From the NCBI GenBank assembly GCA_943354165.1, contig CALRBH010000007.1:1-41303 (forward strand): 41,303 bases of DNA, written 5' to 3'. Both the position numbers and the translations under genes were made by a program. The notes under the pieces are model-generated. The model searched no databases, had not been told where the DNA came from, and worked only from the letters and a program-made list of their open reading frames with translations. Source of the stretch: Candidatus Uhrbacteria bacterium RIFOXYB12_FULL_58_10. Lineage in GTDB: Bacteria; Patescibacteriota; Patescibacteriia; UBA9934; GWF2-40-263. Below, one piece after another: positions 4,319 through 34,398 of this stretch. The number at the start of each line of letters is the position of its first letter. Position 1 is the stretch's first letter.

Positions 4319-4392
4319 TCCGAGATCGTCTAACGGCAGGACAGAGGACTCTGAATCCTCTAATCATGGTTCGAATCCATGTCTCGGAACCA
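4319..4392 (+). tRNA. tRNA-Gln(CTG)
   Basis: Acceptor TCCGAGA/TCTCGGA, anticodon arm GAGGA-ctCTGaa-TCCTC, GGTTCGAATCC T-arm, encoded CCA. Confidence 0.96.
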
Positions 4393-4425
4393 AAAACATA
4401 CCACCCGACCGGGTGGTATGTTTTT
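4392..4425 (+). terminator. tRNA terminator, bidirectional-type
   Basis: Perfect IR AAAAACATACCACCCG/CGGGTGGTATGTTTTT. Confidence 0.85.
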
Positions 4426-4458
4426 GCCCTGAGCGAGGCCACAGCCGAGTCGAAGGGC
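4426..4458 (+). repeat. REP-like palindrome family A, expanded form
   Basis: GCCCTGAGCGAG-gccacagc-CGAGTCGAAGGGC; same ends as the 5494-5557 element. Confidence 0.65.
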
Positions 4459-4516
4459 TTCGAATCGCTGGGGATATTTTAGCTTGACCATGAAAGTACG
4501 CCAGAGTAATATTATA

Positions 4517-4603
4517 GGGCTGTGATGGACGCGGGATCTCCGTCCCGTTCCACTCCGGCTCTTCTGAAAACACCTGGTCGTGGGGGCCGGGTGTTTTCGT
4601 TTT
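4517..4603 (+). ncRNA. Candidate small RNA (hairpin + terminator) with its own promoter
   Basis: TTGACC-N17-TAATAT at 4484-4512; imperfect hairpin 4517-4561; 14-bp terminator stem with G-U pairs valid only on + strand, followed by GTTTT. Confidence 0.45.
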
Positions 4604-4607
4604 GGGC

Positions 4608-5696
4608 CTATTCGGCGTACTGCGCGTTGAGTTTTTCAGCCACCCCGAGAAACGCTTCGAGGGACGCCATGTCGCTCACCTTGTTCATTTCTCCGCGGAG
4701 TTCCTTTGCCCCATGTTGGCCCTTGAAGTACCAGGTGAGATGCTTGCGGAAACTCACGAGTCCATCCTCGCCATACTGCTGCAGATGGAGTTTCGCATGC
4801 TCACGAATGGTGCGAAGCCGTTCCTCGAGCGTCACTTCGCGCATAGGTCGACCATTAAGGAGATCGTCGGTTTGGGCGAAGATCCATGGATTGCCAAGCG
4901 CACCGCGCGCGACGAGTACGCCATCGCACCCAGTCGCCGTCAGACAGTCGACGACTTTCTGTGCCGTATGTGCATCGCCGTTTGCGAGGACGGGGATCGA
5001 AACACGCTTTTTCATCTCGGCGATCATCTCCCAGTTCGAAGAACCACTGTATCCCTGCAATTTCGTGCGGCCGTGCACCGTAATGAGCTCGGCACCAGCT
5101 TCCTCAAGCTTCGGGGCAAACTCAAGACATTCACGCGGATCGCTCCAGCCTGTGCGGATCTTTACGGAGACAGGAACGTTTGGAACCGCTGCCTTGATCG
5201 CCCGGATGATCGCTTGGGCCCGCGGCGCGTCTTTCATGAGGGCGGCGCCATTAAAGTTATGGACGATCTTATAGACGGGGCAGCCCATGTTGATGTCGAA
5301 GGCCTCGGGCTTGTGCTGCTCGTAAATGATGCGCGCCGCTTCGCCCATTGTCTCCGGTTCGCTTCCGAAGAGCTGCTGCACAAGCGGGCGCTCCGCTGGA
5401 TGGATGTCGGTCATCCCAAGCGTCTTTTCGCTTCCGCGGGTTACGGCTTCCGAGGAAACCATCTCCCGAAATACGACCGTTCGATCCGTTATTCCCTGAG
5501 CGGAGCCACCGTGGCCTTCGACAAGCTCAGGCAATAAGGGTGGCGGAGTCGAAGGGCTTGGGATGGCTATGACAGGTCCCAGTCCCCATCGCTCATTTAC
5601 GATTCGTACGGATTGACAAAACGCCGAATCGGTCATGTCGGCCATCGGAGAAAGCGCCACAATCGGGCGGGGAAGGTTTTTCCAGGAGAAGCCCAT
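4608..5696 (-). CDS. dusB: tRNA-dihydrouridine synthase (DusB-like) with N-terminal insertion
   Basis: LSPMADMTD, EMVSS, QLFGS, DINMGCP, SVKIRTGW, TVHGRT, ANGD, ARGALGNPWIF. Confidence 0.92.
   Translation of the reverse strand: MGFSWKNLPRPIVALSPMADMTDSAFCQSVRIVNERWGLGPVIAIPSPSTPPPLLPELVEGHGGSAQGITDRTVVFREMVSSEAVTRGSEKTLGMTDIHPAERPLVQQLFGSEPETMGEAARIIYEQHKPEAFDINMGCPVYKIVHNFNGAALMKDAPRAQAIIRAIKAAVPNVPVSVKIRTGWSDPRECLEFAPKLEEAGAELITVHGRTKLQGYSGSSNWEMIAEMKKRVSIPVLANGDAHTAQKVVDCLTATGCDGVLVARGALGNPWIFAQTDDLLNGRPMREVTLEERLRTIREHAKLHLQQYGEDGLVSFRKHLTWYFKGQHGAKELRGEMNKVSDMASLEAFLGVAEKLNAQYAE
5494..5557. repeat. Nested REP-like family A elements inserted in-frame in dusB
   Basis: Outer CCCTGAGCGGAG-CCACC...GGTGG-CGGAGTCGAAGGGC contains inner GCCTTCGACAAGCTCAGGC in opposite orientation. 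Confidence 0.7.
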
Positions 5697-5760
5697 GTTG
5701 TTTTTATTCGAAACGATCGTATACTAGTCTCATTCAACGAATATTTCAAGCATTTCCCTT

Positions 5761-6156
5761 ATGAAATCTATATCGTCTTCCACGGCCCTTATCGCAGGCG
5801 CGTTACTTGTTGTGGTCGGACTTCTTGGTTATGCGGTATTCCACACAGCTGCACCTTCCGTAAACGACGGTTTTGCGCAATGTCTGACAGAGAAGGGCGT
5901 GAAGTTTTATGGCGCATGGTGGTGCCCTCATTGCACGGCGCAGAAAAAACTCTTCGGCACCGCATTTTCGAAGCTTACCTCCATCGAGTGTTCGCCAAAC
6001 AACACCAAGTCCATGTCCGTTCAGTGTAAGAACGATGGGATCGAAAGCTTCCCGACCTGGGTGTTCTCCGACGGAACCAAATTAGCCGGCGAACAGTCAT
6101 TTAACAAGCTCGCCGAGAAGACAAAATGTGAGCTTCCTAAACAAGAGGGAGTATGA
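5761..6156 (+). CDS. Membrane-anchored thioredoxin/glutaredoxin-like protein (VKOR partner)
   Basis: N-terminal TM, FYGAWWCPHC, cis-Pro-type SFPTW. Confidence 0.85.
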   Translation: MKSISSSTALIAGALLVVVGLLGYAVFHTAAPSVNDGFAQCLTEKGVKFYGAWWCPHCTAQKKLFGTAFSKLTSIECSPNNTKSMSVQCKNDGIESFPTWVFSDGTKLAGEQSFNKLAEKTKCELPKQEGV

Positions 6157-31325: not shown

Positions 31326-31985
31326 ATGCCAAAACGAACCATTCTTCATACGACAGTCGAATTTATCGCGGTTTTCGGGTTTTTCATCGGCATGGGATTC
31401 CTGGCAATGCCGTTGCTTGAAATCATTTCCACGTATCCGTGGTGGGCCGCAATCATCCTTGGACTCGCGGTGCTCGGATATCTCGCCGCCGATTTCTTTT
31501 CCGGATTCGTGCATTTCATGGGCGACTCCTTCTTTCACGAGTCTACGCCAATTATCGGGAACGCATTCATTTCACCATTCCGCGAGCACCACACGGATCC
31601 TGAGGCCATAACGAGGCATGATTTTGTAGAAACGAACGGAAACAATTGTCTTGCATCTATCTTGATATTGCCGATCGCGTTCCTGTTGCTCCCTCTGTAC
31701 CCGCTCGTATCCGCCTTCATCTTCTTTTTTCTCCTGAGTATCTTCGCCACAAATCAGTTCCACAAGTGGGCACATCAAAAGCACCCGAACCAAACGGTCC
31801 AGGTGCTTCAGAAGCTCGGTCTTATTCTTTCGCCAAAGCGTCACGTCCTCCACCACACGCCTCCGTATCACAGCGATTTCTGCATTACGGTAGGCTGGCT
31901 AAATCCCGTGCTCAATCGTCTGAAGTTCTTTCCGACCGCTCATCGAATCCTTTCGATGGTACTACCGAACGATTCCTCGTATTAA
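31326..31985 (+). CDS. CarF/TMEM189 (PEDS1/Kua) family lipid desaturase
   Basis: ADFFSGFVH, FREHH, ITRHDFVETNGNNC, NQFHKWAH, HVLHH, FCITVGWLN; start placed at ATG 31326. Confidence 0.85.
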   Translation: MPKRTILHTTVEFIAVFGFFIGMGFLAMPLLEIISTYPWWAAIILGLAVLGYLAADFFSGFVHFMGDSFFHESTPIIGNAFISPFREHHTDPEAITRHDFVETNGNNCLASILILPIAFLLLPLYPLVSAFIFFFLLSIFATNQFHKWAHQKHPNQTVQVLQKLGLILSPKRHVLHHTPPYHSDFCITVGWLNPVLNRLKFFPTAHRILSMVLPNDSSY

Positions 31986-32212
31986 TTCTTGGTAGCGGCA
32001 CCTAGGCAAGGAGCGAATTCGCACTTCGGACCGCCACGGCCTACGTAGCTGCCATCAGGACACTGTTTCGCTTCCATTGTGCAGGCAACCATCCCAGGAG
32101 CTTCTAAACCCTCTGGTGCGGCAGGCGACATAAAGGTTTTCACGGAATACACAACTCCGCCGACGACTACGAGGAGAGCCGTGATGATGAGAGCTATTTT
32201 CGAGGTCGACAT
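31982..32212 (-). CDS. Small membrane-anchored protein with Cys motif
   Basis: N-terminal TM; ACTMEAKQCPDGSYVGRGGPKCEFAPC motif typical of CPR surface proteins. Confidence 0.75.
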   Translation of the reverse strand: MSTSKIALIITALLVVVGGVVYSVKTFMSPAAPEGLEAPGMVACTMEAKQCPDGSYVGRGGPKCEFAPCLGAATKN

Positions 32213-32390
32213 AGCTGGACGATAAAGATGTATTTATGGTTCTGCGGCCCGGTCTCGCTTGGTGTTTTTTAGAGGGCTTTCAGCTGCCTTTAGGATGTGT
32301 GGTTGACCCGTTCCGGTCTGATAGAACCATGGTCCTGGACACGGTTCTCTGGAAGATTGACAGAATCCTGAATTCTGGTATCCTGTAGTT

Positions 32391-32449
32391 ACATTGGCCT
32401 CGCAAGAGGCTCCGAGAATCCTCCGGCTTAGGTCGGGGGATTCGTTTTT
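32391..32449 (+). ncRNA. Candidate antisense sRNA overlapping the 3' end of the PemK toxin
   Basis: TTGACA-N16-TATCCT (extended TGn) at 32357-32384; GCCTC-GCAA-GAGGC GNRA hairpin; 12-bp terminator with +strand G-U pairs then GTTTTT. Confidence 0.55.
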
Positions 32450-32862
32450 ATGAGCGCGACGAATCCTTCGACCAACGGTTGAAACTGTTCGGGGGAAAGA
32501 TTCCCGATTTTTCGAATGAGCCGTTTGGCACTGATTGTTCTTGCCTGCGCTAAAATTGCTTGAGTTTTCACCGCATCATATTTTATTGGCTGATACCAGC
32601 TGCCGACCTTGGATTTGGTCGTCGTTGGTATCACAAAAAGCATGTCCTTGCTAAATTTTCTGACAATGACCACGGGTCGTTCGAAGTGAAAATTTTTCCC
32701 ATTGGTTTCCGATCCAATATTCTCACCTAAACTCGCCCACCAAACTTCTCGTTCATAAAAGTAAAACTCAGGACGATCGGTGAAGTGAATACTGATCTTC
32801 CTGCTCGTCCACGCAAGAAAATGCTGGACGGGATCGAGGATGTCATCAAGGCTCATACGCAC
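32428..32862 (-). CDS. PemK/MazF-family toxin (endoribonuclease), no protein antitoxin visible
   Basis: EREVWWASLGENIGSETNGK, ERPVVIV, VIPTTT, QARTISAKRL. Confidence 0.88.
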   Translation of the reverse strand: MRMSLDDILDPVQHFLAWTSRKISIHFTDRPEFYFYEREVWWASLGENIGSETNGKNFHFERPVVIVRKFSKDMLFVIPTTTKSKVGSWYQPIKYDAVKTQAILAQARTISAKRLIRKIGNLSPEQFQPLVEGFVALIKTNPPT

Positions 32863-32905
32863 CCTATTCTTGTTGCATCGAAATCCGGAGCTACCGAAGT
32901 TAATG

Positions 32906-33492
32906 TCACGGGTTCAATCGAAAAGAATCAACAATTCTTCTGGCCGTTTCCTCAAAGGATGAATCTTCGTATGAGTCGGTAGTGAAGGTTATTTCTACGT
33001 CCGCGTCGGCCCCTTGGGTCGTTGGGATAAAATAATGTTCGTCGAAACGATCGGTAAAAGTTGCGGCACAAAGATAATGGCGGAGAGTAGGTCTATCATC
33101 CGCAGCCAAGCCGCATATCCTTTGCATTGTTTCGTTCTCATCAAACCATTTATTCGATGACGGAAAAACTATACTGACATATCCAGGACCTGGTTCAGGT
33201 GTCCAGGATCCAAATACAACATTTTGGTATGACTCGTTCGCTGGAAACGGATCGTCTTTGCCAACGCGAGACTCAATGATCGGCCAATTTTCTGGATAGG
33301 AGACGGACCAGTGGTATTTTGGATTTTGATATGTCTTGAAGCCTGCCGACAGAGATGTCGAATTCGAAATTGGAGCAGAGCCGGTAGGAGAATTTTCCTG
33401 TTCCGCCATTGACCTTTTTGCCACAAAAATACACCAGCACCTATCCCGACAAGAAGAGTAACCCCTAAGATCAACGCTATTTTTCCTTTCAT
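32906..33492 (-). pseudogene. Frameshifted membrane-anchored PsbP-like surface protein
   Basis: Signal anchor MKGKIALILG...WQK in one frame, KTYQNPKYHWSVSYPENW...IVDSFRL body in another; one extra base in the T5 run (33415-33419) joins them. Confidence 0.6.
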
Positions 33493-33512
33493 ACGATCGT
33501 AATTGTAGCACG

Positions 33513-33552
33513 AAAAAAGCAAAAACCCGGAGTCTTGCGACTTCGGGCTTTT
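33513..33552. terminator. Bidirectional terminator
   Basis: AAAAA-CCCGGAGTC-ttgc-GACTTCGGG-cTTTT. Confidence 0.7.
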
Positions 33553-33561
33553 ACTGCACCG

Positions 33562-33587
33562 CACGCCGAAGCCTCGGCGTAGGCGTG
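33562..33587 (-). repeat. REP-like palindrome family B
   Basis: Reverse complement CACGCCTACGCCGAGGCTTCGGCGTG shares core with 8779-8798. Confidence 0.6.
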
Positions 33588-33666
33588 GTCACACCCTGTT
33601 CCGGTCTGTAGGAACAGGTCGTGATGGTTCTGAGGTTTGGATTCGAACCACTTACAACAGGGAGTA

Positions 33667-34398
33667 CTATAACGCGAATGCGTCTAGCTCATTCGACATC
33701 AGGTGAAACCAATCACGATAGCCCGCATCACTGGGATGGAAGGAATCGGCGGCATAGTAGACCTTTGGTTGTAAGGCAAACGGGTCCTGGTCACGCTCGC
33801 GAAACAGATCTGTATACCGGACGTTTGGGTTTCCCGCATGAGTGATTTCCGCAAGAAAGATCTCACGAGCCTTGCGTGTTCGGTGGGTAAAGATTGGTCG
33901 GCTCAGGGGAGGGAGAAGTGGGGCAGTCCCCATGTTTCCTGTAGAAGTGACAAGGACGTTCGTGCCCTTGCCTTGTGCGAGGTTCAGAACCGACTTTAGA
34001 CGCGCCCGAAACTCCTCATGCGACGTGAAGTGCGTAATATCGTTCCCGCCTACGTGTACGAGGATTAGGTCAAAGAACTTGGGGTCATTTTTTTTCAGCT
34101 GTTCAATGACGTCCAGCAACCTGGCGCCGCTCACCGACCTATTCACGATGCTGGCGCCGAGGTACTTCTTTCCGACCAACCCAGCGAGTGACTCTTCTGG
34201 TGCCCCAGCCCCAACTCCAGCCCCCGTACTATCGCCGACCATGAGGATACGTTTTCCTCCTTCTGACCCTCCGTGTTCAAAGGGGACCGCTTCTGCCACT
34301 AGCACACGCGCAACGCGAATATGCCCATACGTTCTATAGGCTTGAAACGCAATACAGGCCACAAGAAAGAGAAAAACGATAAGCAAAAACATACGCAT
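33667..34398 (-). CDS. SGNH/GDSL hydrolase, membrane-anchored
   Basis: Block I GDSTGAG, NRSVSGA, block III GGND, block V DSFHPS. Confidence 0.9.
   Translation of the reverse strand: MRMFLLIVFLFLVACIAFQAYRTYGHIRVARVLVAEAVPFEHGGSEGGKRILMVGDSTGAGVGAGAPEESLAGLVGKKYLGASIVNRSVSGARLLDVIEQLKKNDPKFFDLILVHVGGNDITHFTSHEEFRARLKSVLNLAQGKGTNVLVTSTGNMGTAPLLPPLSRPIFTHRTRKAREIFLAEITHAGNPNVRYTDLFRERDQDPFALQPKVYYAADSFHPSDAGYRDWFHLMSNELDAFAL

Follow-up and report, generated by a model that had tools for sequence, protein, structure and literature searches.

The toxin and small RNA genes

The DNA considered here, hereafter the window, is a stretch of 41,303 nucleotides from Candidatus Uhrbacteria bacterium RIFOXYB12_FULL_58_10 (contig CALRBH010000007.1), an ultra-small bacterium of groundwater and a member of the Candidate Phyla Radiation (CPR), or Patescibacteria. 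The subject of the analysis is a two-gene module within it, composed of a gene for a MazF/PemK-fold toxin and, on the opposite strand, a predicted gene for a small structured RNA that converges on the toxin stop. The module measures only ~0.55 kb, which makes it easy to test and to reuse. The toxin gene extends from 32428 to 32856 on the minus strand and encodes 142 amino acid residues from an ATG at 32856 to a stop codon at 32428-32430. An in-frame GTG at 32862 would give a longer open reading frame (ORF) of 144 residues (32428-32862). The copy of the toxin in the protein database contains 142 residues, and relatives of the same length are 69-90% identical to it.

An initial annotation of this DNA, made from the sequence alone, had placed a strong, TG-extended promoter so that it faces the 3' end of the toxin gene, and such a promoter is indeed found at 32357-32384 on the plus strand. 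It is characterized by a -35 element, TTGACA, at 32357-32362, a 16-nt spacer, and a TG-extended -10 element, TATCCT, at 32379-32384. A scan of positions 31500-33800 returned this one site (TTGACA-N16-TATCCT, 10 of 12 matches, TG before the -10 element), and shuffled versions of the same region yielded a mean of 2.5 sites. It is by the comparison of related loci described below, and not by this single-sequence scan, that chance is ruled out.

The small RNA gene is delineated by positions 32391-32449 of the plus strand and would give a transcript of ~59 nt. Its start, A32391, was predicted from the promoter and lies 7 nt past the -10 element, and its 3' end is the U-run at 32445-32449. When folded (positions 32391-32452, plus strand), the RNA displays a 5-nt leader, a first hairpin of 6 bp closed by a GCAA tetraloop (32396-32411), a 4-nt linker, and a second hairpin that constitutes an intrinsic terminator (32416-32443), with 12 bp, two G-U pairs, and a UUAG loop, followed by GUUUUU at 32444-32449. 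A conserved motif, CUCCGAG, at 32410-32416 runs from the 3' arm of hairpin 1 across the linker to the opening base of hairpin 2. The folding energy is -31.3 kcal/mol (z = -4.56), and none of 200 shuffled sequences was as stable, in keeping with the ~60-nt, two-hairpin RNA with a GNRA loop and a 12-bp terminator that had been proposed. The opposite strand folds less well, at -20.9 kcal/mol, because the two terminator G-U pairs become A-C; the suggestion that these pairs fix the plus orientation thus held. As was also noted at the outset, the terminator overlaps the end of the toxin gene: its stem covers the stop codon (32428-32430) and the last four or five codons, and the overlap of the RNA with the toxin ORF amounts to 22 nt.

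Of the RNA gene, 39 nt are non-coding. They are 77-92% identical to those of the relatives in the same clade, as compared to 52-62% for the DNA further upstream, and the non-coding part of the RNA is, as judged from this comparison, under purifying selection. Apart from three tRNAs, nothing in the window scored above the gathering thresholds of Rfam 15. A permissive Rfam scan of positions 32100-33000 gave chance-level matches, the best of which on the RNA was rnk_pseudo at 24.3 bits against a threshold of 55.

Structural model of the toxin

The sole Pfam match of the toxin is to PemK_toxin, PF02452, with an E-value of 8e-10 and a score of 39.3 bits (cut-off 23.1); no match was found to NCBIfam or PADLOC models. 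Members of the family are publicly annotated as "type II PemK/MazF family toxin." An AlphaFold model of the toxin, with a mean predicted local distance difference test score (pLDDT) of 80.7 and a predicted template modeling score (pTM) of 0.71, shows a MazF barrel preceded by an N-terminal helix formed by residues 3-25. When the model was submitted to Foldseek, the top matches were MazF-mt1 and the MazF proteins of Escherichia coli, Bacillus subtilis, and Staphylococcus aureus, with template modeling (TM) scores of 0.70-0.76 on the target, and every match listed was a MazF or PemK entry. For Mycobacterium tuberculosis MazF-mt1 the E-value was 1e-7.

A profile built from 30 members of the toxin family likewise retrieved MazF structures, with E-values from 2e-6 to 6e-4, the best solved relative being B. 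subtilis YdcE/EndoA at 2e-6. In the profile alignment, the invariant R60 of the toxin family lies opposite an arginine of YdcE/EndoA, and an invariant TTT motif (T79/T80) lies opposite a threonine region of that enzyme. We take these residues of the B. subtilis protein to be the catalytic R25 and T48. The N-terminal helix, which canonical MazF proteins lack, carries the near-invariant aromatic and basic residues F13, W16, and K20, and the family is further characterized by the motif WW-x-S-x-GEN-x-G-x-E. Between the toxin gene of the window and its closest relatives, synonymous sites are saturated (proportion of differing sites, pS, 0.6-0.9), with 0.07-0.26 of nonsynonymous sites differing (pN). 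The ratio of nonsynonymous to synonymous substitution rates (dN/dS), where computable, is 0.04-0.15, and because it is low the toxin gene is considered to be maintained by purifying selection. On the basis of its sequence and its modeled fold, the toxin is most likely a MazF-like endoribonuclease.

Conservation of the convergent RNA

Related loci were drawn from two scans: L001-L080 are 80 kept of 94 relatives from a genome scan, and L081-L160 are 80 kept from at least 443 relatives encountered in a metagenome scan. Past the toxin stop, nearly all of them carry the same unit on the strand opposite the toxin gene. A TTGAC-N17-TAnnnT promoter is followed by a brief leader rich in A and U, by hairpin 1, by a short linker that is conserved, and by hairpin 2, which is rich in GC; the unit ends in a T-run lying directly against the toxin stop. 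The RNAs are of two sequence types, referred to as A and B, and that of the window belongs to type B. Type A is described by covariance model R1 (seed A3, 46 sequences). Given that R1 gave no match to the window RNA at E-values up to 1, a second model, R2 (seed A6, 34 sequences), was needed for type B. The R2 match to the window RNA, at 68.8 bits and an E-value of 7e-20, is the sole one in the window and in the entire 852.5-kb genome.

Both structures are supported by covariation. The type A structure contains 12 base pairs, 10 of which show changes on both sides. Of its alignment cells, 96.2% are paired, versus 75.1% in shuffled alignments, and its covariation score is 0.581, versus 0.187 for shuffles (0 of 500 reach it) and 0.07-0.13 for slid controls. 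For type B, pairs were counted on an alignment of 39 distinct sequences that had been fitted to the model and so leans towards the structure; with this in mind, 87.7% of the cells are paired versus 67.8% in shuffles, and changes on both sides occur in three of the four modeled pairs of hairpin 1 and in seven of the nine of hairpin 2. The type B covariation score is 0.555, as compared to 0.213 for shuffles (0 of 500 reach it) and 0.277 when the structure is slid by -1. One pair of the type B hairpin 1 is U-G in 21 sequences, and the RNA strand is therefore fixed. In the 34 sequences of A6, four of the seven positions of the CUCCGAG motif are invariant and the other three are at least 90% conserved. 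Thus the covariance analysis of the 3' flanks, which the initial annotation had put forward as a check, revealed a conserved promoter, two covarying hairpins, and a U-tail.

By R1 or R2, a convergent RNA is present at the toxin stop in 154 of the 160 loci. R1 matches lie beside the stop on the opposite strand in all 72 of L009-L080 and in 37 of the 80 metagenomic loci; R2 matches do so in the window, in all eight of L001-L008, and in a further 37 of the metagenomic loci, such that 74 of those 80 are accounted for by one model or the other. Two of the six loci with no model match are on contigs that end 19-22 nt past the stop, and the other four contain, by eye, a third variant with the same layout. 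Among distinct sequences, 36 of the 37 of type B and 67 of the 74 of type A have a TTGnnn-N16-18-TAnnnT promoter ahead of the RNA. In the majority of loci, the modeled RNA extends 0-5 nt into the toxin ORF at its 3' end, and in seven loci of the clade to which the window belongs it extends 22 nt. A terminator for the module is found in the sense of the RNA in 78 of 101 loci. Terminator-like sites in the toxin sense beyond the RNA gene are not enriched (8 of 101, versus 10 of 101 in a control region).

One change of RNA type suffices for a tree of 109 distinct toxins, whereas shuffled labels require a mean of 32 changes and a minimum of 27. Since relatives share labels, the tree demonstrates co-inheritance without swapping rather than co-evolution as such.

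Several individual loci depart from the simple arrangement. In roughly a tenth of the loci (L006, L010, L015, L022 at 4342-4782, L023, L026, L039, L047, L070, L088, L095, L112, L126, and others), the toxin ORF meets no stop codon ahead of the RNA gene and continues across 39-63 nt of it, so that the toxin gains a tail rich in glycine, serine, and proline whose coding sequence is antisense to the RNA. L156 (111-568) encodes a MazF-like toxin of 133 residues that is more divergent, with a VWMCILG variant of the family motif, and a type B-like RNA lies at the stop of this toxin too; the pairing is thus not limited to the motif by which the loci were collected. Three RNA copies spaced 636 nt apart in L105 (1506-2831) suggest three tandem toxin-RNA modules, and in L080 (3392-3539) two tandem RNA copies follow one toxin. 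In L024 (3007-3454), the toxin gene is broken by an early stop and the RNA is intact (63.5 bits).

Searches starting from the RNA, and a second module

When 151 sampled Patescibacteria genomes were searched with the RNA models, nine R1 and five R2 matches were obtained, and 13 of these 14 are convergent with and adjacent to a toxin gene (9/9 for R1 and 4/5 for R2). The exception is a marginal match with an E-value of 9e-4. Matches to the toxin in the same genomes number 27 and are confined to 17 genomes, one of which (G082) contains five copies. In these whole-genome searches 36-38 candidates were scored per genome, and weaker variants were missed. Consequently, 15 regions were searched again with the filters off: 14 places with a toxin and no RNA match, and the stretch around the marginal R2 match. 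At ten of the 14 toxin places, additional RNA variants with an unchanged architecture can be recognized by eye, and most of these places give weak model matches in the right place and on the right strand (E-values of 0.0012 to 0.2). Three of the 14 are contig ends, fragments, or members of another family.

The genome from which the window derives (852.5 kb, 98.4% complete) has two genes of the PemK family, each with an RNA of this kind beside it, and no third such RNA. The second toxin, of 129 residues, is encoded on the minus strand of contig C22 at 5773-6153 (L162, 1340-1863), and its RNA lies on the plus strand at 5713-5770 behind a promoter, TTGACA-N17-TATATT. The second RNA is of type A, that is, of the type other than that found in the window.

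Absence of a protein antitoxin

The initial annotation had described the toxin as one with no antitoxin ORF on either side, and the neighboring genes bear this out. Upstream, on the minus strand, lies an ORF of 201 residues (frame 32906-33511) with a weak PsbP-like match, and downstream lies an ORF of 76 residues with a membrane-like character; neither belongs to an antitoxin family. The upstream neighbors vary in size and strand among the 80 genome loci and the window. Ten small upstream ORFs were tested, and none belongs to an antitoxin family, although one encodes an ArsR/MarR-type helix-turn-helix protein. All open stretches of at least 35 residues within ~0.8 kb on either side of the toxin in these 81 loci were compared by all-against-all BLASTP, and no recurrent protein family emerged; the largest cluster comprises three of the 81 loci. 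An adjacent, co-oriented MazE/PemI-type antitoxin gene (AbrB, ribbon-helix-helix, or similar) was found neither beside the toxin in the window, nor among the ten small upstream ORFs, nor as a recurrent neighbor in the 81 loci.

The one constant companion of this MazF subfamily is a promoter-driven, structured RNA gene under selection; no protein is. The proposal that the toxin is partnered by a convergent RNA rather than by a protein thus stands, given the 154 of 160 loci, the lack of a recurrent protein, and the RNA-first matches that adjoin toxin genes. A profile search of 1.84 billion representative sequences yielded 278 clusters (at 50% identity) with E-values up to 1e-30, and 1838 with E-values up to 1e-10. 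A large MazF subfamily that is routinely labeled "type II toxin" appears never to have a protein antitoxin, and its annotation would call for correction. With types A and B, at least two covariation-supported RNA families are added that are not represented in Rfam.

A protein antitoxin might still be encoded elsewhere. The solitary MazF-mx of Myxococcus xanthus is described in a review as being neutralized by an unlinked transcription factor, MrpC (PMC4803016). Were the same true here, the RNA would be irrelevant to control of the toxin. The search for recurrent proteins extended only ~0.8 kb to each side, and the myxococcal precedent for a distant antitoxin is a real one. Such an explanation, however, does not account for the RNA gene found with the toxin at 154 of 160 loci, nor for the toxin found beside 13 of 14 RNA-first matches, and would require a distant antitoxin for each of the modules, which are found in unrelated contexts and in many phyla. 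It must also contend with a genome of 852.5 kb that carries two toxins and two cognate RNAs. We regard it as very improbable.

It was also considered that the two genes do not constitute a toxin-antitoxin pair, in that the RNA might be an independent regulator or a terminator/insulator unit, or the MazF-like protein might be dedicated to processing or partnering the RNA in another role in the cell. The lack of PADLOC and NCBIfam matches for the toxin would fit with this, as would the absence of mobile-element genes around the module in the window and the existence of an RNA without a toxin (at L009). A plain terminator, on the other hand, needs neither a near-consensus promoter nor a covarying first hairpin, and the arginine and threonine positions aligned with the MazF residues that we take to be catalytic are invariant. 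Furthermore, the modules are patchily distributed (17 of 151 genomes), occur in several copies in some genomes (five in G082) and in unrelated contexts, and have distant relatives on plasmids and prophages, which is the behavior of addiction or defense modules. The proposal is accordingly an improbable one, though less so than that of an unlinked antitoxin. Rather, the sequence comparisons indicate that the small RNA is probably the antitoxin, or a dedicated controller, of the toxin and takes the place of the MazE protein.

To our knowledge, few regulatory RNAs or defense systems have been described for the ultra-small CPR bacteria, which with this module gain a candidate for RNA-controlled growth arrest. 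In the literature searched, no MazF-family toxin paired with an RNA has been described in CPR bacteria.

Relatives in the Campylobacterota

A tblastn search with a type A toxin identified 15 plasmid records at 31-36% identity, seven from Campylobacter, six from Helicobacter, and two from Nitratiruptor, and the window toxin matches seven Campylobacter phage records. A 134-residue PemK/MazF-family protein encoded on plasmid pVir of Campylobacter jejuni 81-176 can be aligned to the family profile across 118 columns, the motif of the N-terminal helix among them, with an hhalign probability of 98.5% and an E-value of 3e-15; the toxins are about 28-32% identical. In the four Campylobacterota records that were opened, no antitoxin gene precedes the toxin. 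On the opposite strand, each of them displays a promoter-like site followed by two or three hairpins, as assessed by eye and with RNAfold, the last of which abuts or overlaps the toxin stop. The RNA region of pVir spans ~95 nt and contains three hairpins by eye. It has the layout in common with the window RNA, and homology between the two RNAs was not detected.

For pVir of C. jejuni 81-176, a type I system with an antisense RNA antitoxin, CjrA, has been reported (PMC10470494, PMC7826846). The MazF-like gene is the only gene of a toxin-antitoxin family annotated on this plasmid. A DNA search revealed that the segment with the toxin and the RNA is present in pVir of strain 81-176 and missing from pVir of strain IA3902, in keeping with the different systems that the pVir plasmids of the two strains reportedly carry (Shen et al. 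2016, Mol Microbiol 101:909). The toxin partner of CjrA, CjpT, is likely the product of the pVir MazF-like gene. CJpv2, listed as a pVir antisense RNA in PMC5447181 and PMC10470494, was not equated with the RNA discussed here, as it is located on the IA3902 plasmid, which is without the module.

The claim that the system is an undescribed one must therefore be tempered: the same layout occurs, with distant relatives of the toxin, on Campylobacterota plasmids, one of which is pVir of C. jejuni 81-176, for which CjrA has been reported (PMC10470494, PMC7826846). The pVir protein resembles the window toxin in having no upstream antitoxin ORF and in being met by a convergent promoter-to-hairpin unit that ends at its stop, and cjrA/cjpT resembles what is proposed for the present module in combining an RNA antitoxin with a protein toxin other than a small membrane peptide. 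They differ in that cjrA/cjpT serves to maintain a plasmid in a pathogen of the Campylobacterota, the module here being chromosomal in CPR bacteria, and in that the pVir RNA is longer (~95 nt) and beyond the reach of both CPR models. If the assignment of cjpT holds, the window module would be a distant CPR branch of cjrA/cjpT, with RNAs that look unrelated, and a little-noticed Campylobacter plasmid system would be tied to a wide environmental family.

Another arrangement was seen in Campylobacter phage CJIE4-3 (L183; KF751795.1, 31945-32379), a prophage in which a MazF-like gene of this subfamily is positioned between the genes for the terminase large subunit and the portal protein, and a hairpin on the opposite strand overlaps its last codons.

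Possible routes of control

How the RNA might restrain the toxin can be addressed by two main schemes. The one ranked first, albeit tentatively, is an antisense, type I-like route. According to this scheme, the module would comprise a MazF-like endoribonuclease and a convergent, strongly promoted RNA antitoxin of ~59 nt. Transcription of the toxin gene, which would have no terminator of its own, would read into the RNA gene; as no toxin-sense terminator is apparent, toxin transcripts should carry the full complement of the RNA. The small RNA, presumably abundant, would then be complementary over its whole length to the toxin mRNA at its 3' end, which in the window takes in the last codons and the stop. 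Pairing there, in cis, would leave less translatable toxin mRNA, and head-on transcription could possibly help. Should synthesis of the RNA cease, for example upon loss of the module or a shut-off of transcription, the toxin would be made and would cut cellular RNA.

Three features favor such a route, namely the convergent, stop-abutting geometry, the presence of a sole terminator in the direction of the RNA, and the description of the probable Campylobacter relative as type I. Indeed, what remains constant through all of the divergence of the RNA, the Campylobacterota included, is that its terminator abuts or overlaps the toxin stop.

A number of observations weigh against this interpretation or against the pairing itself. 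The stretch shared by the RNA and the toxin ORF is in most cases just 0-5 nt long, so antisense control needs read-through by the toxin transcript, and that read-through is postulated only because a toxin-sense terminator is lacking. Within a given RNA type, the unpaired bases of the leader and the linker show little or no variation whereas the stems covary, and hairpin 1 is often capped by a UUCG or GNRA tetraloop. This combination of invariant unpaired bases and tetraloops suggests a scaffold for binding protein better than it does a loop-loop antisense contact. The RNA displays no extra complementarity to the toxin start region, the cognate duplexes being equivalent to shuffled controls (-16.9 versus -16.7 and -19.1 versus -18.1 kcal/mol). 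A type A RNA of 60.9 bits at L009 (722-775, minus strand) has no toxin beside it, and one toxin locus, L175, shows no RNA even in a search with the filters off. In the Campylobacterota loci L180-L183, neither R1 nor R2, again with the filters off, finds an RNA at the expected place, and the identity of CjpT with the pVir MazF-like protein is itself deduced rather than documented. A mechanism in which the RNA acts in trans against the ribosome-binding site of the toxin mRNA was dropped, given that pairing with the toxin start was no better than that of the shuffled controls.

The orphan RNA of L009 is situated between an unrelated gene encoding 207 residues and one encoding 564 residues.

The scheme ranked second is that the RNA acts on the protein, in a type III-like fashion: the two-hairpin RNA would bind the MazF-like protein and block its RNA-binding groove, the leader or the linker possibly serving as a pseudo-substrate, and convergence would do no more than keep the genes linked and set the ratio of their products. 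In its most specific form, which is possible but doubtful, a single, independently transcribed RNA would directly inhibit a true MazF-fold nuclease. Its invariant leader or linker would occupy the substrate groove, perhaps acting at the extreme 5' end as a pseudo-substrate that cannot be cut, and the N-terminal helix would clasp hairpin 1. ToxN-type toxins, which share the MazF fold and are inhibited by RNA, set a precedent. The invariance of the unpaired bases within each RNA type amidst covarying stems, the frequency of stable UUCG or GCAA tetraloops in hairpin 1, and the lack of trans pairing with the toxin start region all fit with recognition by the protein. So too does the conserved extra N-terminal helix, with its invariant or near-invariant aromatic and basic residues that are absent from canonical MazF proteins. 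In addition, the RNA type tracks the toxin clade (one change among 109 toxins) and two types coexist in one genome, as cognate recognition predicts.

Yet the upstream, same-strand tandem repeat array of type III systems is absent, and the toxin is MazF-like rather than ToxN-like in both sequence and fold. The convergent, stop-abutting geometry is kept in spite of changes in RNA sequence and hairpin number, whereas a binder acting purely in trans needs no such geometry. Finally, the probable relative that has been studied is described as type I (PMC10470494, PMC7826846). Direct inhibition is considered less likely than the antisense route, which is preferred. If direct inhibition were nonetheless true, it would define a new class of RNA antitoxin that bridges type II MazF and type III ToxN and would be the main mode of MazF control in CPR bacteria. 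In either case, whether an RNA can restrain the MazF fold, and by which route, is made testable by the module.

Relation to known toxin-antitoxin systems

Type I systems with convergent antisense RNAs that overlap at the 3' end include txpA/RatA and bsrG/SR4 of B. subtilis and RNA I/RNA II of par on pAD1. The present module resembles them in that a terminator hairpin marks the overlap between the toxin transcript, at its 3' end, and a convergent RNA that has its own strong promoter; in the window, the RNA is antisense to the toxin ORF over 22 nt, and full overlap with the toxin transcript needs read-through. Their toxins, however, are small hydrophobic peptides, as is typical of type I, whereas the window encodes a soluble MazF-fold ribonuclease of 142 residues. 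The module also differs from them in the mostly 0-5-nt overlap with the ORF, the invariant unpaired bases, and the covarying first hairpin. With a large, enzymatic toxin, it would be an atypical type I system, although larger toxins, such as SymE and RalR, are known as exceptions.

The fold of type III toxins is related to that of Kid/MazF, and the ToxIN, CptIN, and TenpIN systems are similar to the module in that an RNA partners an endoribonuclease toxin; the logic of abortive infection would transfer. In those systems, however, the antitoxin is an upstream, same-strand tandem repeat array that is processed by the toxin, whereas here there is one independently transcribed, convergent RNA without repeats, and the toxin is of the PemK/MazF rather than the ToxN family. 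Neither tandem nor direct repeats were found in positions 31900-33600 or 32200-33000, and searches with Pfam, PADLOC, and Foldseek did not place the toxin in the ToxN/AbiQ, CptN, or TenpN families. Lacking both repeats and a toxin of the ToxN family, the module falls outside the three type III families, and the analogy to ToxN drawn in the initial annotation fails as a statement of membership.

With the type II systems MazEF, PemIK, and Kis-Kid, the module shares the toxin fold and the aligned arginine and threonine positions, to which we presume a catalytic role. It differs from them in having no MazE/PemI-like gene and in the extra N-terminal helix and distinct motif of its toxin. Because an antitoxin protein is lacking, it is not a type II MazEF pair. 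MazF-mx is alike in being encoded by a mazF gene without an adjacent mazE, but for it no linked RNA is reported, whereas here a linked RNA is nearly universal.

Genomic surroundings of the modules

The gene upstream of the toxin in the window (32906-33564, minus strand) seems to be split over two frames, with a signal-anchor-like start (MKGKIALILGV...) in the frame of the ORF at 33169-33564 and the PsbP-like body in that of the ORF at 32906-33511. The split may stem from a frameshift or from an error in assembly, or the true start may lie later.

In 20 of the loci L001-L060 (60 in total), 22 tRNA genes and one transfer-messenger RNA gene lie no more than ~3 kb from the module. Ten of the 22 tRNA genes are genes for tRNA-Gln (nine with the anticodon UUG and one with CUG), often located upstream and on the toxin strand, and that of L029 ends 70 nt before the toxin start. 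In the window, a tRNA-Asn gene lies 1.6 kb from the module. This proximity may reflect either a preference of insertion site or a functional link. Finally, the records bearing the modules L003, L004, L006, L023, L030, L035, L050, and L052, on contigs of up to 203 kb, are labeled as belonging outside the CPR, namely to the Alphaproteobacteria (Hyphomicrobium, Methylocystis), the Gammaproteobacteria, and the Methanosarcinales, which points either to spread beyond the CPR or to mis-binned contigs.

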